64,000 bases of DNA from a virus: the IMG/VR virus record IMGVR_UViG_3300044771_000072. One strand, 5' to 3'. The notes below the pieces were generated by a model, which had not been told where the DNA came from, did no database searches, and saw nothing but the letters and a program-made list of their open reading frames with translations. Positions 3,001 through 62,311 of this stretch are shown here, piece after piece. Numbering within the stretch: the first letter of the stretch is position 1; each line of letters opens with the position of its first letter. The position numbers and the translations under genes are program-made.

Positions 3001-5047
3001 ATCACGGCGCGCCGTTCTGGGTGCTGACCGCCTCCTGTGGCCACACCTCGTCGCGTACGCAACGCGTACCGAGGCCGTCGGATATCGTGCTCGGCGGACT
3101 GCGGCCGGACCGCTACTGCGCTCCAAAGCGCGTGCGTTGCTTGTCGTGCGCCCTTGGCTCGCCGCCGATACCGGTCGTGTTTCCCGAGGAGGCGATCGGC
3201 CATGGCTAGCTCCCTCGAAGATTGGATCGCCGCGTACTTTCTGGACCGCGTAGATCCCGAAGATCCGAACTATCGGCTCGTCGAGATTCGCCTGCCTCAC
3301 GCGGCGAAAGCTCAGCCGAGCTACGGACCTTTCTCGTACGCCGGGCTGCGAGCGCGCGAACGGCTCCGCCGCTTCTGCGCCGGGTTTCTGTCGGGCTTTG
3401 GTGACATCACCGTGCACGAGGCAGAGAAGATCATGCGCAAGTCCCGCGCCGCGGAGGAAAGGTTTCCGTCGTCATGACCTTCGGCAAGGCAGGCCCCTCA
3501 GAGCAAGAGAAAACCATCGGCGTCGAATGTGCGACCTGCGGTGCGACCACGATCCCGGATCACACCGCGGCACGCGCAGGCTGGTGCATCGGCAACCTGA
3601 TTATCACGCCGTTCGGATCAGTCCGTACGTGGCTGTGCCCGAAATGCCGACAGGTGCACGCGTGACCGCTATCGATTACTACCGCACGCTCATGGAGCGT
3701 TTCCCATGCGCCGGCGACAAGGGCTGCGAATCGATCGACGCCGATCGCCTGCCTGCCGTCGTCGGGATGTCAGGCCGCGCGTTAGACAGCGAGCCGTGCG
3801 ATCGCTGCAGGACCGTCGACGAACACATCGCCCGATACAGACTTGAAACGCCCCCATCACGCGATACCCCGAGGTAGCTCATGCAGGTTCAGAACATCAG
3901 CCACATGTTTTCATTCACCTTCGAAAAGACCACGGCCGAAGTGCTCGCCGCATGCAAGGCCAAGGAGATCGCGCTGCGCAGCAAGATCGAAGACCGCGAG
4001 GGCCGCGTCGCGCGCATCCGCGCCGAGTACAAGATCACTGACGCGATCCTGATCGATCTGCTTTCACAAGCCCGCGCCGCGGCCAAGCGCAACGACTCAC
4101 TGATGAATTACTCAAGCTCGGTTCAACCGAACGACAGCGGGGAGCCGCAGACCGTCACGGTCGGCGCGGGCGTAGTCAACATGCTCTTGACGGAGAGGGA
4201 CTTCATCGACGGTGAAAAAGGTCAGGCCGACAAGCTCGCGCTCATCGGGCGCAACCTACGCGACTTCACGGACGATCGTGGTATCGCACGGGCGTCCCAT
4301 CACCTCAGCTACGACGAGCTTCGCTTCCTCGGCCTATAAGCCGTGACGATCCGCTACTGCACGCAATGTGGCACGCCGCAGCCGCTCGAGAACGCGACAT
4401 GCGTTTCGTGCGGCAAGCCGACGTCGTCTCCGATCTCGATCCCGCTCGTGATTCCGCGGCCGCCCATGTTCACGTACTGTGACGGCTGCCGGAGATCTGT
4501 CGACTTCGATGCGATCGCGGCCAGGGCGGTCCGCGAGGTTGGCGGGACGATCCTGTGCGAGCTGTGCAAGCCAGAAGGCGCCGAGCCTTCATGAGACGCC
4601 GCCGGCGATGGCGCCACGGCCAGCGCACCACGCTCGCGCAGCGCCCCGGCAACGAGCGCGCGGTCGAGGCGATCCGCGCCGGCGTGCCGGACATGCAGAC
4701 GCCCGCGTACTGGCGATCCGTCTGGGAGGTTCAACCGCCGCCACGGACTTGCACCTGTCGTCGCTCCGGTCCTGACGATCCCGGGTGTGGCGTCACGCCC
4801 TGCCTCGACGACCAGACACTATATGACCCGTGACGAGCTACGCGCGCGACCCGGCCCCCCTGGCTACGCCCCCGGTGAACTCGTCGAGGTCGACCGGCCA
4901 CGGCCAGATCGCAGCACGGCCCCGTACGCGGCGCGGGTGACCCGGTGCTCGACGACGCACATGCATGTGCGGGTGGTCGGAACCGGCCAGGAGATGGTCT
5001 TGACCCGGTGGGATGTGAAGTTGTTCGTGCGGCGGACGCCGGTGTAG
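66..5047 (+). other. Cluster of ~18 short, overlapping hypothetical phage ORFs (e.g. 66-359, 352-636, 633-1001, 998-1273, 1509-1751, 1755-1955, 1952-2233, 2230-2952, 2949-3209, 3474-3665, 3881-4339, 4343-4594), many with CxxC motifs
   Basis: Co-oriented chain of ORFs with 1-4 nt start/stop overlaps; no recognisable families. Confidence 0.7.
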
Positions 5048-5059
5048 GATAGTCCTTGC

Positions 5060-5563
5060 ATGCCCCGTAAGAAGCTGACTCCGGTACAGGCCAAGGCCCT
5101 GCTCCTCGCGGACGGCATGGACTTCACGCAGGACTTCCACGCGCTCGGATCGTCCGACGTTCAACGCCTGGCTGACGTGGCGAAGCTCGCGGGGTACCGC
5201 AAGAGCAAGAACGCCCCAGGATCGACGGCGCGGATGTACTACCAGTACCTCAGCCGCGTCGCGCCGGTGGCGCGTGCGAGCGGCGAGTTCACGCCAGCAG
5301 AGCGCCGCGGCTACCAGGACCGCGCGCGGAAGAAGAAGACGCCGGCGCAACTCGACGCGGAAATCGCCGCGGTCGTCGGCAAGAAGGTCAGCGTGCGAGG
5401 CGTGTCCGTCGCCGTCAACGGATACGGGCTCACGTACCAGCAGTGGTGCTACGCGGCGGGTCTCGACTCGATGGGCAAGGCGACCGATGCCCACTACGCC
5501 GCGTGGAAGCGGGGCGAAGATCCGAGCGACTGGCGCGCTGAATCGCAGCGGGGCCGATCGTGA
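5060..5563 (+). CDS. Hypothetical protein with internal KTPAQLDAEIAA motif
   Basis: ORF track; motif at ~5336-5371. Confidence 0.85.
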   Translation: MPRKKLTPVQAKALLLADGMDFTQDFHALGSSDVQRLADVAKLAGYRKSKNAPGSTARMYYQYLSRVAPVARASGEFTPAERRGYQDRARKKKTPAQLDAEIAAVVGKKVSVRGVSVAVNGYGLTYQQWCYAAGLDSMGKATDAHYAAWKRGEDPSDWRAESQRGRS

Positions 5564-6027
5564 CCACCGCGTATCGCTTCCACTCGCTCGAGGCAGACGG
5601 CCCCTGGCAGTCGCCTCCCTTCGCGGCGGCGGACAAGCGTCACATCATCCAGGGCGTGGTCGGCGGCTACATCATGGGCCGCCCCCGCTGGGCCGAGGAT
5701 CTGGACGGCAGATTCCTGTACGGGCTCGACGCCAAGGGCAAGGAGATGACGTCGGCACCGACACCGCCAACGCCGCCGGCGAAGCGCCGCACGCGGGGGC
5801 CGAACAAGCCGTACGCGGAACGCAACGCCGCGATCAAGCGCAAAGCGAAGGCTGCGCAAGACAAAGCGCGGAGCGCCGAACGCAAGGAGCGCCTCGACGC
5901 GGCGCTCGCGACGACCCTCGAGACACGACGCCAGGATCCCTACAACCTCGCGGCGTGGGACACCAGGAAGACGCCGGCACAGCTCGACGCGGAGATCGCC
6001 GCGTCGCTTGCGAAAAGGACGCGCTGA
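5560..6027 (+). CDS. Hypothetical protein with C-terminal KTPAQLDAEIAASLAK motif
   Basis: GTGA overlap with upstream gene; motif at ~5968-6015. Confidence 0.85.
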   Translation: MTTAYRFHSLEADGPWQSPPFAAADKRHIIQGVVGGYIMGRPRWAEDLDGRFLYGLDAKGKEMTSAPTPPTPPAKRRTRGPNKPYAERNAAIKRKAKAAQDKARSAERKERLDAALATTLETRRQDPYNLAAWDTRKTPAQLDAEIAASLAKRTR

Positions 6028-6029
6028 CC

Positions 6030-6371
6030 ATGACCCGCTACGAAGTGATCGAATCCAAGTCCTGGAAGCACGACGACGGTCGCAGCGCGAGCCTCTACGG
6101 TGCGGTGCCCTGGACGACGGAACGCGAGAAGTCTCAGTGGAAGATCGTCCCGCGCGGCTACACGGTTCGCGACACCACGAGCGGGACGGTCGGCATCGGG
6201 CGCGTGCCCTGGGCTACGCGCGCGGAAGCGCAAGCCTGGGCAGACGCGGCCAACGCAAAGGACCGCCAGCGTCACGAGGACTTTCGTGCGCGCAAGACCA
6301 AGGCACAGCTCGACGCGGAGATCGCCGCGGCGCTCGCCAACAAGAAGCCCCGCCGTCGCAGGAAGGGGTAG
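6030..6371 (+). CDS. Hypothetical protein with C-terminal KTKAQLDAEIAAALA motif
   Basis: ATG 6030 just after upstream stop; motif at ~6294-6338. Confidence 0.85.
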   Translation: MTRYEVIESKSWKHDDGRSASLYGAVPWTTEREKSQWKIVPRGYTVRDTTSGTVGIGRVPWATRAEAQAWADAANAKDRQRHEDFRARKTKAQLDAEIAAALANKKPRRRRKG

Positions 6372-6587
6372 CCAGATGGCCAAGAAGAAACCCGCCGCCG
6401 TCGACAACGATCCCTACCGCCTGTCACTCGCGCGCCGGCGCAAGCTCGATCACGTGCTGAACCAGGCGCAGAACGTCATCGGGTCGGAGTTCCTCGGCGC
6501 CGATCGTCCGAGCGCCGATCGCAAGCTCGGCAACGACCTGTGGGACGCGCTCGAGAAGTTCCGGCACCAGCTGAGCCGGGGGCCGCG

Positions 6588-6809
6588 ATGAAGCGCAAGG
6601 CAGCCGGCGCGCGCTTCGAAATCCTCCGGGGTCCTACGGGGCTCTACCGCTGGGTCCTCTTCGGCCTCAACGGCGAGCGCCTCGGGCCGAGCGAGCACTA
6701 CACGACCAAGGCCGGCGCCTATAAGGGCGTCGCCGCGGTCATGGCCGCCACGCATGCGATCGATGCCTTCGGTACCAAGATCGTCGACATGACGAAGAAG
6801 AAGGCATGA
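6588..6809 (+). CDS. YegP/DUF1508-like protein
   Basis: RFEI...GLYRWVLFGLNGERLGPSEHYTTKAGA matches the YegP repeat pattern. Confidence 0.7.
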   Translation: MKRKAAGARFEILRGPTGLYRWVLFGLNGERLGPSEHYTTKAGAYKGVAAVMAATHAIDAFGTKIVDMTKKKA

Positions 6810-7001
6810 TCGCCATGGCCGCGTCAAAACCGACGCAACCGAACATGTTTCTGACCGTCGCCGATGTCCACCGGATCGTCAACACGCTCGAAGGTCGCCG
6901 CACAGCGCTCCAGAACATCCGAGGTACAAAGCGCGATCAACGCCACCTCACCAAGCTGATCGACAAGCTCTACGCAGTGACGTGGTAGCGAAGGAAACCC
7001 C

Positions 7002-7265
7002 ATGGCGAGAAAACCAAAGTCCGATCCCCTCGCGTGGCTCTCCACGGCCGCCGGCCAAGCCGCCTACTCGAAGGCTCGCGCCGAAGCGCAGGCGCGCGCC
7101 AACGAGACCGGCTACGACATCGGCCTCGAGCGCAATGATCTGTTCAAGACGTTCCGCACGTTCATGCTGCCGCAGCGGCAGAACCGCTCGGGCCACGAGC
7201 TCCAGTGCGAGGTCGTGTCGTGCGAGAACCTGGATCGCTGCAAGCCGGGGCACGGGCCGCGATGA
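7002..7265 (+). CDS. Hypothetical protein
   Basis: AAGGA RBS upstream; ATGA overlap with next gene. Confidence 0.7.
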   Translation: MARKPKSDPLAWLSTAAGQAAYSKARAEAQARANETGYDIGLERNDLFKTFRTFMLPQRQNRSGHELQCEVVSCENLDRCKPGHGPR

Positions 7266-7471
7266 CCGCCAAGAAGGCGCTGGATCGCGACATCCTCAAA
7301 AGTGAGATCGCCGCGCTGGCCGGCACCGGCCGCGCGATTCGCGTACAGCCCTATACCTTCACGCGTTGGGCGCAGACAGCGCGTTTGCCGGAGATCGCAG
7401 CGTACGCCAGCGCCGGACGCGTGGTGACCATCCAGCCCTACACGTTCGAACGCTGGGCTGCCGCGCTGTGA
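7262..7471 (+). CDS. Hypothetical protein with internal repeat (QPYTFTRWA / QPYTFERWA)
   Basis: Repeat visible in protein and DNA (cagccctataccttc / cagccctacacgttc). Confidence 0.65.
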   Translation: MTAKKALDRDILKSEIAALAGTGRAIRVQPYTFTRWAQTARLPEIAAYASAGRVVTIQPYTFERWAAAL

Positions 7472-7640
7472 CGGCCAAGCAAGCGCGCTGCGGCGGATCC
7501 TTGATCCTTCCCTGGCCAAACACCGCAGCGAACGTTCGCAAGACCGTGCGCGAGCTCCGCGCCGAAGGGTGGACTGCCGAGGTCGAGAAAACGCCCCACG
7601 AGACGTACGTGTGGACGAACCGTATTCTTCAAGGATAGCC

Positions 7641-8000
7641 ATGGCCGGAAAAAGCATCGGGCTCACGAAGAGCGGCAAGACGATCTACGCCCACCAAGCG
7701 TTTCACAAACACTTCGACGACTGGACGTCCGAGGACCACGTCGACGCAGCGGAGGCGCACCGTGACGCCGCGACCGAGGCGCGCTACGGCGCGAACGTCG
7801 CGCACACCGTCGCCTACGATCGCGCGAAGTACACGCCCCCGGTCTCGAGCTGGTCGGGGCACAACAGCTCGGCCGACGAGCATGTGTCGCGCGCCAAGGC
7901 GCTCGATCGCACCGTCGCGGCGCTGGGCCTGGGGCGCAAAACACCGGCGCGGCTCGACGCGGAGATCGCAGCGTCCCTTGCGAAAAGAAAACGGCGATGA
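7641..8000 (+). CDS. Hypothetical protein with C-terminal KTPARLDAEIAASLAK motif
   Basis: AAGGA RBS; motif at ~7938-7985. Confidence 0.85.
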   Translation: MAGKSIGLTKSGKTIYAHQAFHKHFDDWTSEDHVDAAEAHRDAATEARYGANVAHTVAYDRAKYTPPVSSWSGHNSSADEHVSRAKALDRTVAALGLGRKTPARLDAEIAASLAKRKRR

Positions 8001-8190
8001 TGACCGACGCCCTCCGTGCCGCAATTCTTCGCTACCCCTACGTAAAAATAGTCGGCGTTCGCGGAGGAGAAGTGATCGTCTTTGACGCCCGCTTAGACAC
8101 CACGACGGTGTACGGCACCCGTGCGGGTTCGCGAAAAACCGCCTACGCGGCGGCCCTTCGCGAACTGGCAGCAGAGTACGGCGTCCAGTA

Positions 8191-8388
8191 ATGGCGAAGA
8201 CCTCCGCGCAGCTCGACGCCGAAATTGCGGCTACCCTCGCAACCGGACGCAAGCCGACCGGTGATCGACGACGGCGCGCACGGCAACGCGGACGCCTCCC
8301 GATGATCAGCGCGCGCCTTTGCGCCGTGTGCGGAGAAGAAATCGAGCCAGGTCACGAGACAAGCGCGTGGCACCTGGCCCATCTGTAA
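8191..8388 (+). CDS. Small protein: N-terminal KTSAQLDAEIAATLA motif plus C-terminal CxxC...H Zn-finger-like segment
   Basis: ORF track translation. Confidence 0.75.
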   Translation: MAKTSAQLDAEIAATLATGRKPTGDRRRRARQRGRLPMISARLCAVCGEEIEPGHETSAWHLAHL

Positions 8389-8648
8389 CGCTCGCTACGG
8401 CGACATCCGCGAACCGCGTCACGATCGTGATCGGCGCAAGCTCGACGTGTGCCCCTGGAGCATCGCCGCAGAGATCCAAGAAGCGACCACCCCACCGGGT
8501 GGATCCTTGGCACGCCGCACGTCACACGGCTCCGTCACGGACTCCGCTTGCTCGAGCGCCAGCTCCACGGCGCGTAGCACGATCTCGTCTTTCGTCTCGC
8601 TCACGACGAACGCTATACACCAGCGCCTAGACGGATGGCCAATCGGTA

Positions 8649-9098
8649 TCACCCACGCAGCCGCCCCCCGGCGTTTCTCAGCGAGAGCAGCGCCCTCACC
8701 TCGAGCTGACGAGCGCGCTCCCGCGTTACCTGAATACGCTCTCCCATCTCTTCGAGCGTGAGTGCGCCGCCATCGGCGATATCCAAGGAGCACGACGCTT
8801 CGAGCTCATCAGGCTCGATGTCAGGATAGGCGAACTTGATCGATCCGATCGACGTGACATCCAGATACAGGTGGTGCCTGCAGCCTGCCCAGACGCAAGG
8901 CCTGGTACGTCGCAGCATCTCGTCCACCGAGTGGCCGCAGCTCCGTTTCTTCAGAGCACCGTCGCGAACTGCCTGACAGATCGGACACGGTAGGCAGTCG
9001 CCACGGATCTTCGGCCGATCGATCTCCAACGTCTCGCGGATCCGTCCCCTGACTTCTTTGGTCGCCTCGTGCACGCCGCGCCGAACCTCGGATCCCAT
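8649..9098 (-). CDS. Cys-rich protein with sigma-70 region 4 HTH
   Basis: TLEEMGERIQVTRERARQLE is a region 4 motif; RPCVWAGCRHHLYLDV upstream. Confidence 0.8.
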   Translation of the reverse strand: MGSEVRRGVHEATKEVRGRIRETLEIDRPKIRGDCLPCPICQAVRDGALKKRSCGHSVDEMLRRTRPCVWAGCRHHLYLDVTSIGSIKFAYPDIEPDELEASCSLDIADGGALTLEEMGERIQVTRERARQLEVRALLSLRNAGGRLRG

Positions 9099-9188
9099 GG
9101 CCTTGACCGAGATCGTGCGGACGCGTACGTGGTAGCGCTTGGGTCGATGCGGGGACGGAATGGCAGCCAGCCTATCCTGTTCCAGGGG

Positions 9189-9707
9189 TCAGAACGGCAT
9201 GCTGATCTGATCGGGATCGGCAGCCACGACCGTACGCAGATCGAGGTCCAGGCGCGCCTCGCCGCAGACCAGCGACAACGCCTCGAATCGCAGATCCACC
9301 CGATCCGCCGCCGTGAACTCGGCGGGCTCGGAGCGCGGCAGCCGCCGTAGCGTCACGTGCGGGTGGTACCCGAAGCGATCGTCGACGCGGACGCCGCAGG
9401 CGCCGCAGTGCTGGAGGAGCGCCTGGCGGAACTCGAGGAGCGCGGGGCTCTCGAGCAGGAGTGCGATCACCGATCCTGCCTTCTGGTCCATCCGCGCCGT
9501 CGCCCAGGAGCGTGCGGCGAGGGGGCCCGGGGTGGGATCGAGCGTGCGCCGGCACGCCGTCAACACGCGCTCGACCTGTGCCGCAGAGACGCTGCGACCG
9601 AAGTGCGCGAGCGTCGTGTGGGTCTCGGTGTAACCGGGATCCGCAGGGAACAGCCCTGCCCAGAAGCCGCGTCCGGCGGCCGCGTTCTCGAATAGCTTGT
9701 CGATCAT
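9189..9707 (-). CDS. 2H phosphoesterase (2'-5' RNA ligase/Acb1-like)
   Basis: Two HxT motifs: THTTLAHF and HPHVTL. Confidence 0.75.
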   Translation of the reverse strand: MIDKLFENAAAGRGFWAGLFPADPGYTETHTTLAHFGRSVSAAQVERVLTACRRTLDPTPGPLAARSWATARMDQKAGSVIALLLESPALLEFRQALLQHCGACGVRVDDRFGYHPHVTLRRLPRSEPAEFTAADRVDLRFEALSLVCGEARLDLDLRTVVAADPDQISMPF

Positions 9708-9767
9708 GTGCCTGCCTTCGGTTCGTGTCGGTATTACGTTCGTGGGTGCGGACTGCCGTAACAACGC

Positions 9768-10292
9768 CTACCCGATGGGCCGATCATCGAGACATGACGT
9801 CGCTCCCGCCTCCAGCACGTGTTGCGTTGGCCACCACGACGGCCATTCCAGCATCGATTTGCGGAGCTCCAGGTCTTGCCGGAGCACGACCCCAAGGGAC
9901 ACGCCGTGCCGGGATCGGCGCCAGCACGCGATCGGATCGCCGACCAAGGCGATGACGTGCAGCGTCGCCTCACGCGCGAGGCCGAGCGCGATGTACGGTG
10001 AGACCTCCGCGATCGACGTGTTCGTGTTGTCGACGATCAGATCGACGTCGCCAGCGCGCAGCTGATCGTCGAAGAGGCGCAGGCAGCCGCCATGTGCGAC
10101 TCCCAGGAGCTTCACGTCGAAGGGCAACCCGTCGCGGGCCTCGAAGAAAGCGTCCGCGGATACCGCCTCCGTACGCTGGCGATCTTTCCACCAGGACGGC
10201 GGGTACGGATAGTGCCGATATTGATCGGCGATCGCCTTTGTCAGCCAGCTCTTCCCGCTGCCGGAGCAGCCGCGCAACACGAAGACGTTCAC
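9768..10292 (-). CDS. P-loop kinase (AAA_33 / polynucleotide kinase-like)
   Basis: Walker A RGCSGSGKS, VSADAFF, LIVDNTN, RSRHGV. Confidence 0.8.
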   Translation of the reverse strand: MNVFVLRGCSGSGKSWLTKAIADQYRHYPYPPSWWKDRQRTEAVSADAFFEARDGLPFDVKLLGVAHGGCLRLFDDQLRAGDVDLIVDNTNTSIAEVSPYIALGLAREATLHVIALVGDPIACWRRSRHGVSLGVVLRQDLELRKSMLEWPSWWPTQHVLEAGATSCLDDRPIG

Positions 10293-11793
10293 GCGGCTCC
10301 CGGCGGTACCGCGTACGCGGCAGGGCACCCCGCCGGGTGGCCCTCGAGCGCATGCACCTCGAGTGTGACGCCGAGCGCCGAGAGCGCGATCGAAGACAGC
10401 ACGGTCCCGCAATGCGCGCAGCGTGCGTGCCACACCTCCCTCTCGGACCAAAGGTGGAACCACGACCGGTATTCGGGGTACCACGTCGGCGCGTTCACGC
10501 GGACCACCCGTGCGTGTCATCGCCCGCGTCACTCGCCTTGCAATCGCAGTAGAGGCCACCTGGGCGACCTGTACGCGGGAACAGGTTGCATACGGTCTCG
10601 TGAAAGGAGGGCGGTCCGTACGGCCAACGCTCTGCGGGAACGCTCCAGCGAAGCGACTCGCCATCGGCTGCGAGGTCTCGGGCGCGTGGGCCGGTCCAGG
10701 GTCCCGTCACGGGCGCGGATTTCCCTTCGCGATGTTCCACCAGGCGCGCACGATCGGCGGGGTCACTCCAAGCGCCAGCGCGACATCCGCGTGACCGAAC
10801 GCCGGCGCGGCCTCGTAGAACTCGACGACGCGCTGCATGAACGCAGGCGTCACGACGCAGCCCACGTGCCCTTCGAAGCGCGCCGCCTTCCACACCCCGC
10901 GCGCTCGACCGCAATAGCGGCATACCCGCACGTTGGCGTGGGGCGGATGCGTGGCATCTAGCGCGGCGCGATCCTCCTGATACTGCGTGGCCAGCTCCGA
11001 CAGCGTCATCCGTCGAAGCTCTCCGCGAGCGTCGTCCGCACGAGCTCTGTGATGGCGTCGACCGTCCAGCCAAGTTCACGCAGCATCGTGATGCCGAGAC
11101 CGACGTGACAGCCGGCGAGCGTACTGGCATCGTGCCCTTGCGTCGCGAGACGCACGTCGAGCCCCTTGAAGGCCTCCGTGATCACGTGCGGATCACTCAC
11201 GCGGTGATCTCGCGCGCCTCCAGCTTGACCGGACCGCCGTTGAGGTCTCCGATCTCCTTCGCCACGGCCTGCTGCAGCTCACGCAAACGCTTGGCGTGCG
11301 CGACATGGCCGCGCGAGTGCACCTGCTTGAAGACGTAGGATAGCGACTCCGCGGCCTTGTTGAGATCACGGGTCAGCATTGCCTTTTCGGCGGTAGTCCA
11401 TTGGTTCATGTCGTCCTCTTTCGCAAGATCGCCGCTTCGAACGGCTGCAAGCCGCTGCCATCGCACGGAGGCTGATTGTCCCGACGCGGCTGCTCGTAGT
11501 GACGCGCAAGCGCCTGCGTTGCGGCGACCACCACGATCGGCTGCTCACAAAACGCGCAATCAGCGGTCTCGGGATCGTTGATCACGACGCGCGTCGCCCC
11601 ACGTCCCGCCAGCCACGCACCGTCGAGATCGCCACGCCGAGCCGCCGTGCGATCACCTCATCCTCGACGTCCACGCCGGCCGCGAACCGGCAGAACTCGA
11701 GCGACGGCCTGGCCTGACGCGAACGGAAATAGTCGATCGCGAGCTGGTCGAGCGGACCGGGGCGGGAGGCATCGATATCGAGCATGAAAGACA

Positions 11794-12024
11794 TTACGGC
11801 ATCTCCGGCTGCAGACGTTCGCACGCGATCGCGCTCGGTCCGCAGCCCATGCCCGAGGATGCGACACAGCGGTAACGAACCCCGTCAGCAAGGCACAACG
11901 CCTCACCGTTGCTTTCACCTGCGCACGTGACGGTCTTGCTCCCGCGAACGGTCAGATGGTCCATGGCAAGATCGGCGGTCCGATCGCACGCCGCGAGTGT
12001 CAGGCACAGCAGGAGCTTCTTCAT
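11794..12024 (-). CDS. Small Cys-rich lipoprotein
   Basis: MKKLLLCLTLAA-C lipobox. Confidence 0.6.
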   Translation of the reverse strand: MKKLLLCLTLAACDRTADLAMDHLTVRGSKTVTCAGESNGEALCLADGVRYRCVASSGMGCGPSAIACERLQPEMP

Positions 12025-12079
12025 AGGGCCTCGTCGTCTTCCACCAGCGCAGCGCGCTCATCGTCATCGAAGGGCTCGA

Positions 12080-12265
12080 TCATCGCGCCGCCTTCCGGCG
12101 TACAACGGCCGGGCGCGCCTCCAGATCTGCGATCAACTCCGACGCAAGCTGCGCATCGGATACGCGGGTCTGATGAAAATCCTTCGCGGCGCCCTCGCAG
12201 CCGTATCCGGGGCGCGCGGCGCAGGCGCGGCACGGAATCACGATCGGGCCCAGCTGAAGGGTCAC
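12080..12265 (-). CDS. Small Zn-finger protein (CxxC..PG..C..H..R)
   Basis: IPCRACAARPGYGC...FHQTR; GTGA-coupled start. Confidence 0.55.
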   Translation of the reverse strand: MTLQLGPIVIPCRACAARPGYGCEGAAKDFHQTRVSDAQLASELIADLEARPAVVRRKAAR

Positions 12266-12399
12266 GGCTGGCCGCTCCGCGCGATTCGGCGGACGGCTCG
12301 CAGCCGGCGAGCCGCCGGGCGGGTCCACCAACGGATCCACTCGACCCCAAGAAGGGTCGCCACCGCGATCACGAGCACAAACACGACAACCACCCTCCG

Positions 12400-12429
12400 C
12401 GAATAGCAAATTCCTGACGACCTCGTCAA
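12400..12429 (-). promoter_or_regulatory. Candidate sigma70-type promoter TTGACG-N18-TATTCG
   Basis: Sits at a divergence point between gene blocks; same spacing seen at 29776-29805 and 39672-39701. Confidence 0.35.
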
Positions 12430-12467
12430 CGTAGATCTGCAATTTGCGTGGCAGATCCCGACGTGCG

Positions 12468-13091
12468 ATGTTCCGCCCCATGGCAACTCCCGCGACACGA
12501 TCTCTCTTCCTCACCGCTTTGTTCGCGATCGGCATCGCGACGCCTGCTGTGGCCACTGCGCAAGGCAGTGGATCTGCCGCGCTGATCGAACCGGCGGCGC
12601 CGGCAGGCTCCTCGGCAGGATCTGGTTCCGCAGTCGCGGTAGGATCTGGTTCCGCAGCCGCAGGATCTGGTTCCGCGACGGTGCCGCCAGCCGTCGCCAC
12701 CACGATCACGACCACGACGGCCACCACGACCACGACGGCCCCGGCCGTCGTCACCGATCCGGACGTGGATCCCGAGGGCTTCCTCCACAGCCTCCTACGG
12801 GCAGCCACCAGCGGCGCGTGGAAGTCACTGGCGGGCCTCGTGCTGGTCGGACTGGCCTTCGTGACCCGCAAGTGGCTCCTCGGTCGCGTGGCCTGGTTCC
12901 AGACCAAGACCGGCGGAATCACGATCGCGCTGGCGATCTCGCTCTCCACCACCTTCGGTCTCGCGTGGGCAACCGGTGTCGCCATCTCGGCCACCCTGGT
13001 GGCCAACGCCTTCAGTACGGCGATGGCGGGCGCGGGCGCCTGGCAGTGGCTCCAAGCAGCCACGGAGAAGAAGCCGGCGGTGGCGTCGTGA
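12468..13091 (+). CDS. Membrane protein with signal peptide, GSGSA/Thr-rich linker and 2-3 C-terminal TM helices (holin-like?)
   Basis: Hydrophobic segments; AGGATCTGGTTCCGC three times at 12617, 12641, 12662. Confidence 0.7.
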   Translation: MFRPMATPATRSLFLTALFAIGIATPAVATAQGSGSAALIEPAAPAGSSAGSGSAVAVGSGSAAAGSGSATVPPAVATTITTTTATTTTTAPAVVTDPDVDPEGFLHSLLRAATSGAWKSLAGLVLVGLAFVTRKWLLGRVAWFQTKTGGITIALAISLSTTFGLAWATGVAISATLVANAFSTAMAGAGAWQWLQAATEKKPAVAS

Positions 13092-13465
13092 AGTCGCTCG
13101 CGCTCGCGCTGCTCGTCGCATTCGCGACTGCGTGTCCTGGTCCTGGCCCTGTGGTCACGACGGCCATGGTCGATTGCCTCGCCGAGAGCCCGACGGACAT
13201 CAATCTCGTCTACGAGGAGCTCAAGCCTCTGCTCGACTTTGCCAAGCCGGACTGGTCCGCGATCTACCAGCGCGCCAAGCGATCGGGCGTGAAGCTCGGG
13301 GGCTGCGTCATCGCCAAGATCGTCCAGTTCTATCTCGGGGGGCGACGAGCGCCTGCAGTCGACGATAGCTGGGCTGCTCGGGGGCTGCTCGAGGAGTACC
13401 GATCACACGAGCTCGGCAACGCCACGATTCGCGTCGAGGTCGACGGCAAGATCCTCGAACTGTGA
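13088..13465 (+). CDS. Lipoprotein
   Basis: MKSLALALLVAFATA-C lipobox; GTGA overlap. Confidence 0.7.
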   Translation: MKSLALALLVAFATACPGPGPVVTTAMVDCLAESPTDINLVYEELKPLLDFAKPDWSAIYQRAKRSGVKLGGCVIAKIVQFYLGGRRAPAVDDSWAARGLLEEYRSHELGNATIRVEVDGKILEL

Positions 13466-14241
13466 CGCTCGAGATCGGCAAGCTCGGGCGCGTCGAACCT
13501 GCAAGCGACGACGTCCGCACACGGTCTCGCCTCGCCAGGGCGCTCCCCGCCTCGGCGCTGATACCGCCACGGTCGTATCCGGCAGGGCCCCCGGACCGCG
13601 ACTACCTCGGCGACGAGGACTACCCATGGTTCCTCAACGACCGGCTCGGGTGCTGCACGATCACGGGCATCGCGCACTACCTGGTCGCTGCGGCGCGCCA
13701 GCGCGGCGTCACGATCACGATCACCGATGACGACATCCGTACAGCCTATTCCCGAGCCACGGGCTACATCCCAGGGCGCCCTGAGACCGATCGCGGCGGG
13801 CAGTGCATCAACGCACTGGTCGTCGCGCGCAACGAGGGCATCGGCGGCCACAAGATCGGCGGCTTCGCGCGCGTCGACATGACCGACAAGCTCCAAGTCG
13901 AAGCGATGATCAACCTCACGGGTCCCCTGTTCGTCGGATCGGATCTCCCAAAGCGGATCGAATCCCAGCCAGACGAGTGGTTCCGGCCGCCCCTCGAAGA
14001 GCGCACGGTCGCCGACAAGCCGCGATCCCTTGGCGGCCACGCGTACCTGTACGGTGGCTACAACCACCGCAAGATCAAGGCGCTGCCTTGGCGTAAGCGC
14101 GTCGACCAGCGCTGGGATTGGAGCTTCAGCTACACGGACGAGGGCTGGGCGCTGTTCGACAAGCACTGGGTCGACGGCGACTGTCCGACGCCGAGCGGCT
14201 TCCCGCTCGAGCGGCTGCGCCAGTACCTCGCGTCGCTATGA
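13462..14241 (+). CDS. Papain-like cysteine peptidase (candidate endolysin)
   Basis: NDRLGCCT (catalytic Cys), DRGG, GGHAYLYGGY (catalytic His). Confidence 0.65.
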   Translation: MTLEIGKLGRVEPASDDVRTRSRLARALPASALIPPRSYPAGPPDRDYLGDEDYPWFLNDRLGCCTITGIAHYLVAAARQRGVTITITDDDIRTAYSRATGYIPGRPETDRGGQCINALVVARNEGIGGHKIGGFARVDMTDKLQVEAMINLTGPLFVGSDLPKRIESQPDEWFRPPLEERTVADKPRSLGGHAYLYGGYNHRKIKALPWRKRVDQRWDWSFSYTDEGWALFDKHWVDGDCPTPSGFPLERLRQYLASL

Positions 14242-33282: not shown

Positions 33283-33939
33283 TCATGCTCTACGTCCCAT
33301 CGCCTCGAGCGCCTCATCATGAAACCCGTGGGCCTCATAATACGCGGTCAGCCACTGCTCGGCCGTCGCGTCCTCGACCGTCGGCTTGCTCTCGGATCGC
33401 ATCCACCGCCAGAACGTCTTGCGCCGCTTCCCTAGCTCGACGCGGACCTTCACGCCCCATGTGTTCGGATTGTGCGTGGCGTGGTCCGGGTGGGGCTGGA
33501 TATCGAGAACCGTGATCGCGAGCGTCATAGAAGCTGTCCGCCGTGCTGTGCAACGTACGCGGCGAGCATGGCTCCCGTGGTCAGCGGTACCACGCACGAG
33601 CGCCTTGAAAATTCGTGGCGCGTCGCTCGTGTTGCGAACCGAGAACACGACATCTTGCCAGGGCTGGATCACGCGAGGGCGCGCGATTCGATACCCGTGG
33701 ATCTCTCGCAGATTCACGCCGGGCACCCCGTCCTGCGTGCCCTCGCTCGGACTGAAGATGCTGATGTTCCCAAGCTTGATGTCGTTCACGTGGAAGTGCT
33801 GCGCGCACTCGTCAAGGACCACGACCGAATCGACGCGCATCGTATCCTCGGGACGCCGCGTGATCGTCGCCTCCTGGCCGGGATCGATCGGGAAGTCGTG
33901 GCTGTCGATGCGTACGAGGACCGGGATATACTTCTTCAC
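33283..33939 (-). CDS. Protein whose N-terminal ~120 aa is paralogous to the putative capsid domain at 49-50 kb; possible internal start at 33528
   Basis: ITRRPE, VNDIKLGNISIF, GVPG, DVVFSV, VRGTA align with ITARPQ, VNDIKIGNRSQF, DVPG, DVVMVV, IVGTA. Confidence 0.7.
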   Translation of the reverse strand: MKKYIPVLVRIDSHDFPIDPGQEATITRRPEDTMRVDSVVVLDECAQHFHVNDIKLGNISIFSPSEGTQDGVPGVNLREIHGYRIARPRVIQPWQDVVFSVRNTSDAPRIFKALVRGTADHGSHARRVRCTARRTASMTLAITVLDIQPHPDHATHNPNTWGVKVRVELGKRRKTFWRWMRSESKPTVEDATAEQWLTAYYEAHGFHDEALEAMGRRA

Positions 33940-48851: not shown

Positions 48852-49454
48852 ATGTCTCGTCCCACGTATCTTTCCGGTCGCCAGCAGCAGGCGCTTCTCG
48901 GCGCCTGGTACTCCATCGTCGGCGCCGATCCGGCCGCAGGGCCGCTCTGTGCCCCCGACGACGATCAGCAGTCGGGCGTCCCGACCAACCACTACCACGG
49001 CGGCTACGGCGGCTACCGCGGCCGCGGCCGTCGCGACGGCTACGAGATCCCGCCGCGCAACGCGATGATCGAGGATCGCGGCCCGACGCGTGCGGACCGC
49101 GAGGTTCTGCCGATGTCGACGGGCGTGGCGATCCTGCCGACGCAGTCGGCGCAGATCACGGCGCGCCCGCAGCGCGTCGCGTTCCGCCCGGAGCGGGTGT
49201 TCATCTCGAGCGCGGGGACGACCGGCGGCGCGGCCGACTGGATCGTCAACGACATCAAGATCGGCAACCGGAGCCAGTTCTCGCAGAGCGGTGACGTGCC
49301 CGGCGACATGTTCGCGACCAACGCCATCGACGGCTTCGTCTCGTTCGAGACGGCGCAGACGGCGATGGACGTGGTCATGGTCGTGACGTACATCGGCACG
49401 AACGAGTCCGGCACGCCGTTCTACGCGTCGATCGTCGGAACGGCGGCGATCTGA
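48852..49454 (+). CDS. Putative major capsid protein 1 (short N-arm + ~140-aa beta-rich, candidate single jelly-roll domain)
   Basis: About eight alternating-hydrophobic beta segments; strongly biased codons; late-block position. The fold is inferred. Confidence 0.55.
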   Translation: MSRPTYLSGRQQQALLGAWYSIVGADPAAGPLCAPDDDQQSGVPTNHYHGGYGGYRGRGRRDGYEIPPRNAMIEDRGPTRADREVLPMSTGVAILPTQSAQITARPQRVAFRPERVFISSAGTTGGAADWIVNDIKIGNRSQFSQSGDVPGDMFATNAIDGFVSFETAQTAMDVVMVVTYIGTNESGTPFYASIVGTAAI

Positions 49455-50428
49455 GCCATGGCGGGTAACGCCTACATGGGCGCGGATGAAGTCCAGGCGC
49501 TGGTCGGCGCCTGGAAGCAGATCATCGGCGCCGACGTGCAGCTCGGACCGACTCCGGGGCGGGGGACCTATCGTCCGCCGAACCGGCCGTACCAACCGCC
49601 GTACCAACCGCCGTACCAGCCGCATCATGGCGGCGGCTACGGCGGCGGCTACGGCGGCGGCTTTGGCGGTGGCTACCCGTTCACGGGAGTGCCGCAGCCG
49701 GCGTACTGGCGCGACGCGCGCGGTACGCAGTTCCGTCGCGACGCGCGCGGCACGTTCTGGCGCGATCGGCGCGGCGTGTGGCGACCGGTGCAGGCTCCGG
49801 CGGCGGTGCCGTACCGTCCGCACGGGGTGGCTCCTGCTCCGTACATCCGTCCGACGGGTGGGGTCGTTCGCGACCATCGCACGAAGGTCGGCATGCCGTG
49901 GTGGGGAGTGCCCGCCGGCGCGGCGGCGCTGCTCGCCTACGGCGCGTCGAACCCGGCGCCTCGCGCCTCGCTCGGCGGCGAGCCGTGGCAGACGATCATC
50001 GGCTGCGAAGGGGAGGAAGCCGGCGACGGCTACGAGATCCCGCCGCGCAACGCGATGATCGAGGATCGCGGCCCGACGCGTGCGGACCGCGAGGTTCTGC
50101 CGATGTCGACGGGCGTGGCGATCCTGCCGACGCAGTCGGCGCAGATCACGGCGCGCCCGCAGCGCGTCGCGTTCCGCCCGGAGCGGGTGTTCATCTCGAG
50201 CGCGGGGACGACCGGCGGCGCGGCCGACTGGATCGTCAACGACATCAAGATCGGCAACCGGAGCCAGTTCTCGCAGAGCGGTGACGTGCCCGGCGACATG
50301 TTCGCGACCAACGCCATCGACGGCTTCGTCTCGTTCGAGACGGCGCAGACGGCGATGGACGTGGTCATGGTCGTGACGTACATCGGCACGAACGAGTCCG
50401 GCACGCCGTTCTACGCGTCGATCGTCGG
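49033..50428 (+). repeat. 406-bp identical direct repeat (49033-49438 and 50023-50428)
   Basis: Base-by-base reading; alternative-frame ORFs of the two copies are also identical. Confidence 0.95.
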
Positions 50429-50444
50429 CACCGCCGCGATCTGA
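49458..50444 (+). CDS. Putative capsid protein 2 (long Pro/Tyr/Gly/Arg-rich N-arm + identical C-terminal domain)
   Basis: PYQP x3, GGGY repeats, RDARG repeats; C-terminal domain same as 48852-49454. Confidence 0.55.
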   Translation: MAGNAYMGADEVQALVGAWKQIIGADVQLGPTPGRGTYRPPNRPYQPPYQPPYQPHHGGGYGGGYGGGFGGGYPFTGVPQPAYWRDARGTQFRRDARGTFWRDRRGVWRPVQAPAAVPYRPHGVAPAPYIRPTGGVVRDHRTKVGMPWWGVPAGAAALLAYGASNPAPRASLGGEPWQTIIGCEGEEAGDGYEIPPRNAMIEDRGPTRADREVLPMSTGVAILPTQSAQITARPQRVAFRPERVFISSAGTTGGAADWIVNDIKIGNRSQFSQSGDVPGDMFATNAIDGFVSFETAQTAMDVVMVVTYIGTNESGTPFYASIVGTAAI

Positions 50445-51067: not shown

Positions 51068-51331
51068 ATGGCAGACGATCCACAGTTCGTCGGAGCCGGC
51101 GACCTGGACGATTGGAAGATCCTCCCGCGGCGCTTCGAAGCGTTCATGGTCGAGGTTCGTACGTCGTTCGATGTCCTCGGCAACAAGATCTTGCCGTCGC
51201 TCGAACGTATCGAGCACGCGATCGGTGATCTTGCGGATCGGGTGACCCGGCTGGAAGCAGCGCGGCACCGCGCCGAGGATCGGCTTGCGGTGCTCGAACA
51301 GCGTTCGAAGCCAAAACGAAAGGCCAGCTAA
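51068..51331 (+). CDS. Small coiled-coil protein
   Basis: Heptad pattern; abuts both neighbours. Confidence 0.7.
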   Translation: MADDPQFVGAGDLDDWKILPRRFEAFMVEVRTSFDVLGNKILPSLERIEHAIGDLADRVTRLEAARHRAEDRLAVLEQRSKPKRKAS

Positions 51332-52794
51332 TGTTCACCCCGCTGCTTCACATCACGCTTCCTGAAGACGACGGCGAAGATCGTCACTTCGCGCCGATCT
51401 TGCTCGCGCTCGAGGCCATGTGCGCGATCAACAAGTGGCACATCCAGCGCGCGCTCAAGCGCGCGGAGAAGGGGCAGGGCGTTCCGTTCCCACCGCTCTA
51501 CGCGTCTGGTGTTCGCTACAAGGAGGATCCGGCGGGGCGTGAGGATTGGCGCGACTGCTACGTGGTGCTCAAGCGCGGATGGGGGGACTGCCTTCCGCTT
51601 TCGACGCTGGTGCTACGTGATGACTATACGCTGGCGCCGCTTGTCGCGTTGCGCCCCGGCGATCGAATCATGGGCGCGAATGCCTGGACGCAGGTGCAGG
51701 AGAACGTCGTGACCGGCGAAAAGCCGATCCTGATGTTCCGTTTGTCGAATGGCTGCACGCTTCGATGCTCGCCCGAGCATCGGCTGTTCCGCGATGTGGA
51801 AGGTACGATCGAAGAAATTCGAGCGAGCGACGCTCGGATCGGCGACGATCTGCTGACGTCACAATCGATTCCGCGCGCAGCCACTGAAGATCTCGGCTGG
51901 CCGGAGTCACTGGCGAAGCTGTCTGAAACGGATCGCGCCTGGCTGCTTGGCGTTTTCGTGGCGGATGGCTGGACGGAGGACTATCGCGCGGCGATCTCGG
52001 GGCGTGATGGCAAGCCCAAGGAAGCGCAGAAGCGCCGCGTCGAGACACTGATGAAAGACGTTGGCGTCGCGACGCGTTGGCATGAGAAGTACATCGCGAT
52101 CAACGATCGGGCCGTGGCCGAATTCTTTGCGAAGTGCGGTCGGCTCGCGCCCAACAAGCATCTCGACTCACTTCGTTTCGGCACGGACGCTTCTGTGCGC
52201 GCCGCGCTTGACGGGCTGGCCGCAGACGCGGGTCATACGAAAACGGGTGACCCGGAATCGGCGCTCGTCTACACCACGACATCGCAGGTGCTAGCGCTGC
52301 AGCTTCGCGTGCTGTACCGCATGCTGGGGCACAGCGTGTCGATTCAGCGCGTTGACGACCATGGCGGCCTAGGCGAGAATCCGATCTATCGTCTGGTTCC
52401 GCGGCTGAAGACGCGAGAAGGGTACGCCGAACGGCGCGAGAAGAAGTTCGCCCGTGTTCGTGCGATCGCAGACGGCGGTGTCGAGCTGTGCGGTGACATC
52501 ACGACTGACGCGGGTCGGTTCTGGCTGCCGGAGTCGGACGTGCTAGTGCACAATTGCGACAACCTCGTCGCGTGGCGTGTCGGAGAGCTTCGTGCCGCCG
52601 GCATCGATGCGCAGCCTGCCGTCAAGTGGCAGCAGGTTCCCAAGGACATGATGATCAAGATGGGGCACCCCGCAGACAAGATCCCCGAGAGTGGTATTTC
52701 AATGGTTCATTGCTCTGTGAAGTATCCCGACGGGCGGATCGAAGACGTCTCGAAGAACCTCGGCATGGGCGGCGCGTACACGAACAAGCTCTGA
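51331..52794 (+). CDS. Transglutaminase-like cysteine protease (165-aa extein) interrupted by an intein
   Basis: Spliced product reads RGWGD-CDNL...MVHC...IEDVS (Cys-His-Asp). Confidence 0.75.
   Translation: MFTPLLHITLPEDDGEDRHFAPILLALEAMCAINKWHIQRALKRAEKGQGVPFPPLYASGVRYKEDPAGREDWRDCYVVLKRGWGDCLPLSTLVLRDDYTLAPLVALRPGDRIMGANAWTQVQENVVTGEKPILMFRLSNGCTLRCSPEHRLFRDVEGTIEEIRASDARIGDDLLTSQSIPRAATEDLGWPESLAKLSETDRAWLLGVFVADGWTEDYRAAISGRDGKPKEAQKRRVETLMKDVGVATRWHEKYIAINDRAVAEFFAKCGRLAPNKHLDSLRFGTDASVRAALDGLAADAGHTKTGDPESALVYTTTSQVLALQLRVLYRMLGHSVSIQRVDDHGGLGENPIYRLVPRLKTREGYAERREKKFARVRAIADGGVELCGDITTDAGRFWLPESDVLVHNCDNLVAWRVGELRAAGIDAQPAVKWQQVPKDMMIKMGHPADKIPESGISMVHCSVKYPDGRIEDVSKNLGMGGAYTNKL
51589..52554 (+). 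mobile_element. Intein (322 aa) with LAGLIDADG endonuclease domain
   Basis: Starts CLPLST, block B CSPEHRL, LLGVFVADG, ends VLVHN followed by +1 Cys. Confidence 0.93.
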
Positions 52795-52848: not shown

Positions 52849-53280
52849 ATGAGCAGCCACGAAGCGACGGAGCTGAGGCTCTACATCGCCAATGCCGCGG
52901 ACTTGCATCGGCAGCAAGGCACGGCGATCCTGCGGAACCTCGCGACCAAGAAGGCGCGTGGCGACTACAAGCACGATCTCGCGGTGAAGCTGTACATGTA
53001 CCTCGTCGAGAGTGGCGCGAAGAAGTACGTCAAGCAGTTCGGCACGCCGGATCAACCGTGGCACAAGCTGTTCAGCATGGCGGATCGCAAGGCCGTCGCT
53101 GAGGATCTGACGCGGAGCTTCGAAGAAGAGTACGGCTACGGCAATTACGACAGCCTGTTGCCGAAGAAGTACCAAGCCGCGGGAACGCCGGCAGGCGCAC
53201 GGCTCAAGAAGTCGGCCGCGCGTCTTCAGCGCGAGATCGACGAGTCGCTCGCGTCCGCGAAGAAGGGTGCGCGCCGGTGA
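52849..53280 (+). CDS. Helical phage protein with C-terminal variant tag KSAARLQREIDESLA
   Basis: ORF translation; motif at ~53206-53253. Confidence 0.8.
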   Translation: MSSHEATELRLYIANAADLHRQQGTAILRNLATKKARGDYKHDLAVKLYMYLVESGAKKYVKQFGTPDQPWHKLFSMADRKAVAEDLTRSFEEEYGYGNYDSLLPKKYQAAGTPAGARLKKSAARLQREIDESLASAKKGARR

Positions 53281-57900: not shown

Positions 57901-58054
57901 CATGGGCGTCAAGCACGCGTTCACGTACGCCGCGTACTTCGATCGTGAGGATCCGATGTGGCCGCGTCCGCTCAACGAGACGATCGGCAAGGCGCGCCCG
58001 GCTCCGGTGGCGCAGAAGCCACGGATCCAGCGGGAGATCGCGACGGCGGCATAG
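54965..58054 (+). CDS. Large modular virion protein (~1029 aa) with Gly/His-rich tract, TM segments and repeated xVG junctions
   Basis: ORF track; ATGA coupling; internal modules shared with 62311-63792. Confidence 0.8.
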   Translation: MMTIGEITKAVLAQDTRWAEILQRARAAKHPASVSAERWYKTAWSPRLSSFLQAASDLDPAARISDAVDEYLTFVNERLYPGARQAGFPESSFILEDITLEEAGPLEDVNVSGSSRGGHGGGHYHGGSHNDHGHHGGRGGASRSDWGLMEDVLVGRGGGGGRGGRGGGGGGGGRGGRGGGGGGGGGGGGGGHHGHHGHHGQHGGRRFFGGGWGYPYYDYSRPLLVEEDDDSADAAAAAEDAAAAAREAAAAAKAAAAALAIPAVAEAVQKAAATAMDPAAAPVAVGMNSYDPWRVMESSPPARYPIVPDEYLPVRRSVYLAGVATPPTSGVNVAFDLDASNRLHVKICVDGQCYQRETDLAEVIEALYAHLHAQRVPPLEDTFASELAPEAVVDEAVATVGKLLVGCMLEEHGDTIVGGWWSTVKKGIKKATYGVHHAASKAAAKYLKVPATMVVTAVATVYGGPAAGAAAAKYTGPLMDAVANDFKKGKGTAIIKAAEEEAKTNPKVKEALDVAKAAVVDATVAYTLTDLQKKAQAGDKEAQKKIEDIHLAANAGDLAAAQSVAMLADAREKSAANDAAKAAGAKVGHWALPLALGAGAGAAGLAGYQAWNRKHPGAFAKFFAPKTPALEIDTVEVATVTPEQQEAVASGVLPVVALVAAALAGYAWWRNRASKQLADQAMLTAAEADASADSKVKTALAEQAVDLAEQAKESAPPTEPTPGWEDPNDPSSAFYQSVYGPQGDASTAGEIVGARQVLATGKPITIPVITEDGEPTDRAVMWHPTIDQIKRFGKKIPAYYTEDEGGLFLFADPKGFEIDQGPLMGRRVLRYAPTWNVRYIGTALAERVRRGAAPSHEGLTEETNARFWEQTGYKPGQKLDPRNPKDKAMAKVWLAIHNRIKAEELGRRYANVQYGQPVTSGRAQVVGATAGLAALQQMASNVASRSEKRVVGVVRLPNGKWLTPSFADADDADDWFGRVMGVKHAFTYAAYFDREDPMWPRPLNETIGKARPAPVAQKPRIQREIATAA

Positions 58055-61876: not shown

Positions 61877-62311
61877 ATGGCCGATCACAACACGCCTGCA
61901 GGCCCCGGCGTCAAGGCGCACCCGAGCACCTTCTCGCCGGTGGCAGCCTTTGATTATCCTGTCGGCACGCCCGTCGCCATCGATGATGACGGCGGCCTGG
62001 CCGGACCGGCCAATGCTGCGAATGAGCCCACCTGCGTGGGGCTCGCGCGCACGCGCGGTGTCACGGGCGAGCGCACGATCACCCAGTACGGGGACGTGCT
62101 GCAGCTGACGGCCGCCGAGTGGAACACGGTGGGCACGGGTGCCGGTGGCCTCCTGGACGGGCTGGCCTACTACCTGTCCGAGACCCCTGGGCAGATCACT
62201 GCCACCCCCCCGGTCACCGCGCAGTCGTGGGTAGTCCCCCTAGGGATCGCTGTCTCGAACACCGAGCTGCTGATCTTGCTCGGCATTGGCACCCTGGTTC
62301 CGATCGGCTGA
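61877..62311 (+). CDS. Tandem paralogue of 61428-61850
   Basis: AHPSTFSPVA, PVGTPV, GLAR, LTAAEW, YYLSETPGQIT. Confidence 0.65.
   Translation: MADHNTPAGPGVKAHPSTFSPVAAFDYPVGTPVAIDDDGGLAGPANAANEPTCVGLARTRGVTGERTITQYGDVLQLTAAEWNTVGTGAGGLLDGLAYYLSETPGQITATPPVTAQSWVVPLGIAVSNTELLILLGIGTLVPIG

Follow-up and report, generated by a model that had tools for sequence, protein, structure and literature searches.

A portable peptide tag on unrelated small basic proteins of an uncultured large sediment virus: a candidate docking helix for virion cargo

Introduction

Encapsulin cargo-loading peptides are short terminal docking peptides on varied cargo, and the jelly-roll viruses adenovirus and African swine fever virus (ASFV) possess basic core polyproteins, which are cut at short motifs by a viral protease. 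In bacteriophage T4, the capsid-targeting sequence (CTS) is a 10-residue N-terminal propeptide of the internal proteins IPI-III and is removed after L/I-X-E by gp21 (PMC3012670, PMC9026906, PMC5694885). A 64,000-nucleotide stretch of the IMG/VR virus record IMGVR_UViG_3300044771_000072 (hereafter the window) carries a 16-residue peptide tag on six small proteins, for which a first reading of the sequence alone (the sequence-only reading) had proposed a similar role. The source is an uncultured large sediment virus, and the window makes up about a third of its 187,844-base contig.

Polyvalent proteins of phages and conjugative elements are large, consist of 2-15 domains and often contain built-in metallopeptidases; they are predicted to be packaged and delivered early, and release by peptidases was suggested (PMC5512222). 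In the Dar system of phage P1, a stretch within 30 residues of DarB is sufficient for the packaging of a foreign protein in the capsid; the signal is N-terminal only, and no consensus among the Dar proteins was reported (PMC9024508). A literature search, from whose coverage most subscription journals were absent, yielded neither a description of the motif or the virus group nor a full-text match to the motif core.

From the observed portability, composition, joints and cross-lineage context of the tagged proteins we infer docking, packaging, cutting and delivery: with a probability of about one half, the tag is a docking helix that remains on the protein and serves to bring cargo into the core of the virion, and a His-containing joint between protein modules is the likely site of a maturation protease.

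Sequence and conservation of the tag

The tag has the consensus (K)K-[ST]-P-A-Q-L-[DQ]-[RA]-E-I-x-x-x-L and occurs in the window in six open reading frames (ORFs), in each case in frame and on the + strand (Table 1). The six copies reached profile scores of 37-43, whereas the best shuffled score was 6.1 (20 shuffles; 18,607 predicted window residues); the scoring profile was trained in part on these same copies. A seventh copy with a score of at least 10 was not found when the predicted window proteins were scanned. The motif set of the sequence-only reading is thus confirmed for all six copies, with the reservations that the payload (the protein apart from its tag) of ORF 8191 is doubtful, that only five of the 12 ORFs in the run 5060-8388 are tagged and that Arg replaces Gln in ORFs 7641 and 52849. 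Contigs of other, independent sediment runs cover this region without any differing letter, which excludes an assembly artefact. A separate contig present in three runs (X2-X4) matches only the tag (window positions 5977-6014) and encodes a different gene, in which the tag follows the initial Met; further tagged genes are therefore present in the same samples.

For 162 pairs of codons specifying the same amino acid in the window copies, the codon was identical in 87 pairs (82.9 expected from codon usage), and identity at the three codon positions was 0.78/0.80/0.49. Because codon sharing matches the expectation and third positions are least alike, the constraint on the tag acts at the protein level, as had been claimed; the candidate explanation as a DNA-level repeat was rejected by this test. 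Once the motif was masked, no BLASTP match at E ≤ 1e-5 remained among the six tagged proteins, which are otherwise dissimilar, as described before. No Pfam, PHROG, NCBIfam or PDB match of these six proteins extends over the motif; a PHROG match at E 0.004 spans the payload of ORF 5060 only, and the best PDB match had an E-value of 0.73. The mean hydrophobic moment at 100 degrees was 1.22 for the tag and 0.81 for shuffles. Since this mean lies within the 95th percentile of the shuffles (1.54), the predicted helix is rated as moderately amphipathic.

Distribution of the tag beyond the window

A search profile was built from eight tag copies, so that the resulting counts are lower bounds biased to close variants. 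The profile, which contained the tag only, matched 189 proteins at E ≤ 10 among 7,994 candidates and 182 protein clusters at E ≤ 0.001 among 1.84 billion. The proteins examined are the matches listed (the best 120 of the 189 proteins and the best 150 of the 182 clusters), and 258 of these 260 distinct proteins carry the tag. The other two hits (P0279 and P0315) look like translated repeat arrays and were left out of the tagged set. The 267 copies in these matches are distributed over N-terminal (122), internal (111) and C-terminal (34) positions, which extends the variable position seen in the window. Matches in the ESM Atlas belong to unnamed viral clusters only.

The segments flanking the tag (346 in the listed proteins) fall into 195 single-linkage families, and 80 different segment combinations occur in the 89 proteins with segments on both sides of the tag. 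With this number of families, and with masked window proteins that are unrelated, the tag as one homologous domain family was rejected. Hence, neither of the findings that the sequence-only reading had named as contrary to it, conservation as DNA only or a single domain family, was obtained, and its portable label on unrelated payloads extends well beyond the window. The 258 proteins are small (median 163 amino acids, longest 552), basic and soluble. After masking of the tag, 87% carry a net positive charge versus 62% of 107 untagged window proteins (p 5e-6), and Lys and Arg together account for 16.6% versus 13.6% of the residues. A membrane-spanning stretch is present in none of the 258. In the 99 tagged proteins scanned by Pfam, credible domains were detected in three (GNAT and DUF6496 over the cut-off, ParB_N under it), and no metallopeptidase or LPD domain was found.

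Two families were collected through their payloads. The tag is present in 24 of 38 members of the ORF 6030 family and in 107 of the 119 listed homologs of ORF 52849 (best 120 of 193 matches), where it is C-terminal in 105 of the 107. In the tags of the latter family, Gln6 (93%), Leu7 (97%), Glu10 (91%) and Ile11 (98%) are retained. These sequences show that payloads acquire and lose the tag and that it passes from one payload to another. In one further locus (L004) the tag is found on two adjacent ORFs and in a weak form on a third, both strong copies being in frame on the coding strand. The genome under study probably possesses at least eight tagged genes, namely the six of the window plus P0200 and P0249 outside it. 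The tag profile gave no match in five virus records of the Asn-Pro group (see below) and others, nor in the loci L014-L044 (best profile score 3). The motif pattern was matched 3 and 0 times in IMG/VR and 6 times in species genomes, always by a lone copy in an unrelated protein; these matches were taken as chance.

A His joint between modules

In relatives, the modules of tagged proteins are joined at His-[Ala/Ser]-[Thr/Arg]. The triplet His-Ala-Thr was seen 109 times (8.6 expected; 12.7-fold enriched), and in 191 of 219 cases His-[AS]-Thr is followed by Lys, Met, Val, Arg or Ile. Outside the tag itself, homology breakpoints coincide with the joint in 20 of 38 cases (5.5 expected) and in 88 of 244 cases (30.4 expected), while the breakpoint counts of two control triplets were at expectation. 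His-[AS]-[TRK] directly precedes 57 of the 111 internal tags, compared to 1.5% of background windows. Together with the 122 N-terminal copies, 179 of 267 tags therefore start at the protein start or right after a joint. A joint within 20 amino acids after an N-terminal tag was observed for 12 of 122 copies (background 3.7%). Because the joint rarely follows N-terminal tags, a cut there would leave the tag on the protein; the tag might still be removed at some other site. These sequence patterns make the joint a likely maturation-protease site.

For the enzyme itself, the adenovirus/ASFV-type core protease family gave no match in the window. The 487-amino-acid protein encoded at 51331-52794, directly before the tagged gene 52849, contains an intein-like insert right after a Cys (Pfam E 0.004; NCBIfam intein models under the cut-off). 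The host part of this protein had no family match and looks transglutaminase-like; the protein is a candidate maturation protease. A second candidate is the 259-amino-acid protein encoded at 13462-14241, which belongs to phrog_19005 (function unknown) and presumably shows a papain-like Cys/His arrangement. A Val/Ile/Met-Gly motif is mildly enriched in the proteins of the region around ORF 52849 (29 versus 20.4).

Payload modules in other viruses

The module of ORF 52849 was found in 12 IMG/VR loci, none of which shows a tag of the window type; neighbouring genes were examined in eight of them. In three loci (L014, L015 and L017) it is one part of polyproteins of 791-1213 amino acids with Asn-Pro joints (11, 16 and 13 seen; 2.0-2.8 expected), which are followed by an Arg-rich gene. 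Neither the polyprotein genes nor the Arg-rich genes had a family match, and Terminase_6N was not matched in four records of this type. These joints punctuate both the polyproteins and the Arg-rich neighbour at 9126-13259 (L014), 8460-13508 (L015) and 9279-13049 (L017) of records of 71-73 kb. The Asn-Pro-jointed polyproteins represent a parallel system.

In L019, the same module lies 3.4 kb before a head-maturation protease and a major head gene, and in L018 it lies near head closure, scaffolding and major head genes. Four unrelated proteins near the T4-type head module of L019 (348-11997) share the N-terminal motif L-[IV]-x-Q-x-[LIVM]-x-G-x-x-P, which on sequence grounds is read as another lineage-specific tag. 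A single protein of 530 amino acids in L044 holds the modules of both ORF 5060 (E 2e-15) and ORF 52849, untagged and set apart by [LI]-x-E-[AS] sites, of which 7 were counted against 1.1 expected. These sites resemble those of T4 gp21, since this protease cuts at L/I-X-E (PMC9026906). L024 and L044 are putatively T4-like.

Virus type and structural genes

The window encodes a DNA polymerase A, helicases and a primase, and a HerA-like gene is also present. The genes 48852 and 49458 share an identical C-terminal domain behind different Gly/Pro/Tyr-rich N-termini; paralogs of this domain were found at 33283-33939 on the other strand and three times in L005. Its model is all-beta with a predicted local distance difference test (pLDDT) score of 78 from a 5-row alignment, and single-sequence folding gave only 38. 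Compared to jelly-roll proteins, the model reached Z-scores of 6-7.2, tied with non-viral jelly rolls and not above unrelated rows. Among the matches were the Orf virus scaffold (Z 7.2, root-mean-square deviation (rmsd) 3.7, 118 aligned residues), a chain of HHIV-2 (Z 7.1, rmsd 4.9, 117 aligned) and satellite-virus capsids; the best Foldseek match in the PDB had an E-value of 0.01. A profile of the domain gave no match to a 215-amino-acid gene of L014 (probability 0.3%), to five further records or to any IMG/VR sequence.

Hydrophobic stretches occur in 7 of 21 genes after 48 kb versus 3 of 68 in the replication region. The jelly-roll-type domain and these hydrophobic stretches suggest a tailless, membrane-containing particle, as far as the domain model can be relied on. 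ORF 52849 sits among the jelly-roll and membrane-anchor genes. The sequence-only reading had placed it in a "structural block", a term that is not borne out by family matches, as none to a capsid, portal or tail family was obtained for the genes there. Likewise, an HK97-fold T4-type head protein or gp21 protease was not matched among the 53 proteins scanned of the window, itself about a third of the contig. The membrane-anchored proteins encoded at 54965-58054 and 62311-63792 share a segment of approximately 40 amino acids, and the second also has EF-hand-like matches under the cut-off.

Comparison with described systems

Like the T4 CTS, the tag is one short conserved peptide on diverse small proteins, and in T4 too the literature proposes a route for varied proteins into the capsid and describes a three-residue protease motif in core proteins. 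There are differences: this tag has 16 residues, is located at either end or inside and seldom precedes a candidate cut site; the candidate joint is His-[AS]-[TR] and not L/I-X-E; and the window contains jelly-roll and membrane-anchor genes, with no match to a T4-type head gene. By analogy, the tag would work like a CTS but is not one, as it fails the defining N-terminal position. The T4 comparison of the sequence-only reading can thus be retained for the function; it does not extend to the position of the tag or to the candidate cut site, which follows so few N-terminal copies.

The polyvalent proteins are likewise built from unrelated domains shuffled in many arrangements, and GNAT and ParB-like payloads also occur here. 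However, the tagged proteins are small, nearly all lack a Pfam match and are unified by a short tag, which is not mentioned for polyvalent proteins in the accessible part of PMC5512222. The short loading stretch of P1 DarB is comparable; the difference lies in the strong, widely copied consensus of the tag.

Proposed function and alternative explanations

According to the docking reading, the tag would be a label bringing small basic proteins to one shared site in the assembling particle, where they would be packed with the DNA. The Ser/Thr-Pro cap might start an amphipathic helix, whose face formed by Leu7, Ile11 and Leu15 would fit into a groove of a capsid or core protein; the basic flanks may contact DNA. 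A viral maturation protease would then cut after the His joint and free the modules, and internal tags would thereby obtain a new N-terminus like that of the copies that begin with Met. In contrast to the propeptide of T4, the tag would not be lost from the mature product. Fusion to the tag could turn an ordinary early gene, for example of the ORF 6030 family, into pre-loaded cargo delivered at infection; a comparable conversion is proposed for T4 (PMC9026906).

If this reading is right, the tag allows the proteins that an unstudied group of large viruses packages and delivers first to be recognised from their sequence. About 195 segment families, almost none of which contains a known domain, would then be candidates for anti-defence or genome-protecting factors. 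A maturation protease that prefers His-x-Thr, which would be unusual, is predicted; cargo modules would move between very different viruses by a change of label, and the T4 principle would be extended to a label working at either end of or inside a protein. A wider proposal is more tentative and somewhat doubtful: a group of large, probably tailless, membrane-containing jelly-roll viruses might possess its own cargo code, consisting of the retained docking helix and the His-Ala-Thr protease joint. Its core modules might come from a pool to which T4-like tailed phages and the Asn-Pro-jointed viruses also have access, and every lineage would mark these modules with a tag and a cut site of its own.

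Several observations weigh against the cargo reading. The His joint is lacking in the six tagged proteins of the window and in 150 of the 258 tagged proteins (present in only 108), and related proteins in this set are not independent counts. The tag and the joint are linked but separable, because L005 has joints and shared modules with no tag within 20 kb. A distance of 40 kb separates five of the six window copies from the jelly-roll genes, and no shared (late) promoter motif of the tagged genes was found by a promoter scan, which gave 0 sites. In all 16 IMG/VR loci, the ORF 6030 payload is encoded on its own as a protein of about 70-90 amino acids that lacks the tag; in the three of them whose genes were examined (L027, L032 and L036) it lies in small-gene regions, in L036 3 kb from an anti-restriction gene. 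It also occurs in seven records of Brevundimonas jumbo phages and is untagged in the one checked. Furthermore, the ORF 5060 module stands alone in two of three loci (L042 and L043), the ORF 52849 module does so in L025, and L024 and L044, which are both fragments, gave no major-head match. The role as virion cargo proposed by the sequence-only reading is hence indirectly supported by two payloads (ORFs 5060 and 52849) with head-type or jointed contexts elsewhere, and the ORF 6030 payload does not fit it. No partner of the tag emerged when its complex with the 48167 protein and the jelly-roll domain was predicted (score 0.00), which is evidence neither way.

The sequence Ser/Thr-Pro-Lys-Lys is a minor-groove binding motif. 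The tag could accordingly be a DNA-condensing or self-association element, whose Lys-[Ser/Thr]-Pro start binds DNA and whose helices pair, so that the tagged proteins coat the genome in the particle or the cell without any receptor. The strongly basic composition of the tagged proteins, the basic runs flanking the tag, the presence of at least two copies in nine of the 258 listed proteins and a fit of Leu7, Ile11 and Ala14 to a short heptad pattern are in agreement with this. We nevertheless consider it unlikely: a stretch of two heptads is rather short to form a stable coiled coil, and a specific partner fits better than charge because the helix itself is neutral to acidic and Gln6, Leu7, Glu10 and Ile11 are kept in 91-98% of the copies collected through payload homology. 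With regard to the location in the particle, this explanation overlaps the docking reading. Slightly less probable still is that the tag docks early non-virion proteins on one host partner (e.g. RNA polymerase, a protease or a nucleoid protein) during takeover. The ORF 6030 payload, an untagged small gene of non-structural regions elsewhere, the distance of the run 5060-8388 from the structural genes and the GNAT or ParB-like nature of some payloads would suit such a function. So would a weak -10-like hexamer 9 nucleotides before ORF 5060, which lies within a 9-nucleotide word at 5045-5053 that recurs at 11336-11344, although the promoter scan remained without a site. Against this function, two payloads occur in head-type or jointed polyproteins of unrelated viruses, and bulk loading accounts more easily for 195 segment families than a single host site does.

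It is very improbable that the tag is mainly a recombination hub, i.e. a short tolerated coding repeat for part-swapping that is kept by copying and not by binding. Homology breakpoints do cluster at the tag and the joint, copies 2 and 4 are alike at 15 of 16 residues with similar tails, and DNA identity among the window copies is 73-87% over 45 nucleotides. As the sole cause, however, it is largely refuted, for the amino acids are kept without any similarity at synonymous positions beyond that predicted from codon usage, the coding strand carries all window copies (six) and the two strong L004 copies in frame, and the 122 copies at the very N-terminus join nothing.

Features of the tagged run

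In the run 5060-8388, 12 small ORFs follow each other closely on the + strand, and the net charge was positive in all 11 ORFs measured. The tagged genes of this run, the distant ORF 52849 and the candidate capsid genes are listed in Table 1.

Table 1. Tagged genes, tag copies and related features of the window (aa, amino acids)
Feature	Position	Strand	Remarks
167-aa basic protein, internal tag	5060..5563	+	Residues 5-80 are a portable module
Tag copy 1, internal in ORF 5060	5333..5380	+	Profile score, codon comparison
155-aa basic protein, C-terminal tag	5560..6027	+	Three relatives, all tagged (but found through the tag)
Tag copy 2, 4 aa before stop of ORF 5560	5965..6012	+	Profile score
113-aa basic protein, C-terminal tag	6030..6371	+	Payload is a widespread stand-alone phage protein
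Tag copy 3, 10 aa before stop of ORF 6030	6291..6338	+	Profile score
Six small untagged ORFs of the same run, all net positive; 6588 is DUF1508	6376..7638	+	
119-aa basic protein, C-terminal tag	7641..8000	+	
Tag copy 4, Gln to Arg, 5 aa before stop of ORF 7641	7935..7982	+	Profile score
65-aa ORF, N-terminal tag, payload doubtful	8191..8388	+	
Tag copy 5, from residue 2 of ORF 8191	8194..8241	+	Profile score
Two genes ending in the same ~135-137-aa jelly-roll-type domain; candidate capsid proteins	48852..50444	+	Sequence identity and model
143-aa protein, C-terminal tag variant	52849..53280	+	Residues 4-105 are a module common to polyproteins of other viruses
Tag copy 6, 8 aa before stop of ORF 52849	53206..53253	+	Profile score

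In ORF 8191 the coding signal beyond the tag is weak (codon log-odds -0.40 and -0.02 versus 0.15-0.31 in the other tagged ORFs), and no relative was found among the collected proteins; it is possibly a decayed gene. The untagged 69-amino-acid ORF at 7262-7471 contains an internal tandem duplication of 29 amino acids (68-nucleotide repeat, spacing 87) and, close to the start of the ORF, a stretch that faintly resembles the tag (profile score < 10). Facing the tagged run from the opposite strand (9189-10292 and 8649-9098), genes for a 2H phosphoesterase, an AAA_33 kinase-like protein and a sigma-70 region 4 protein were detected.

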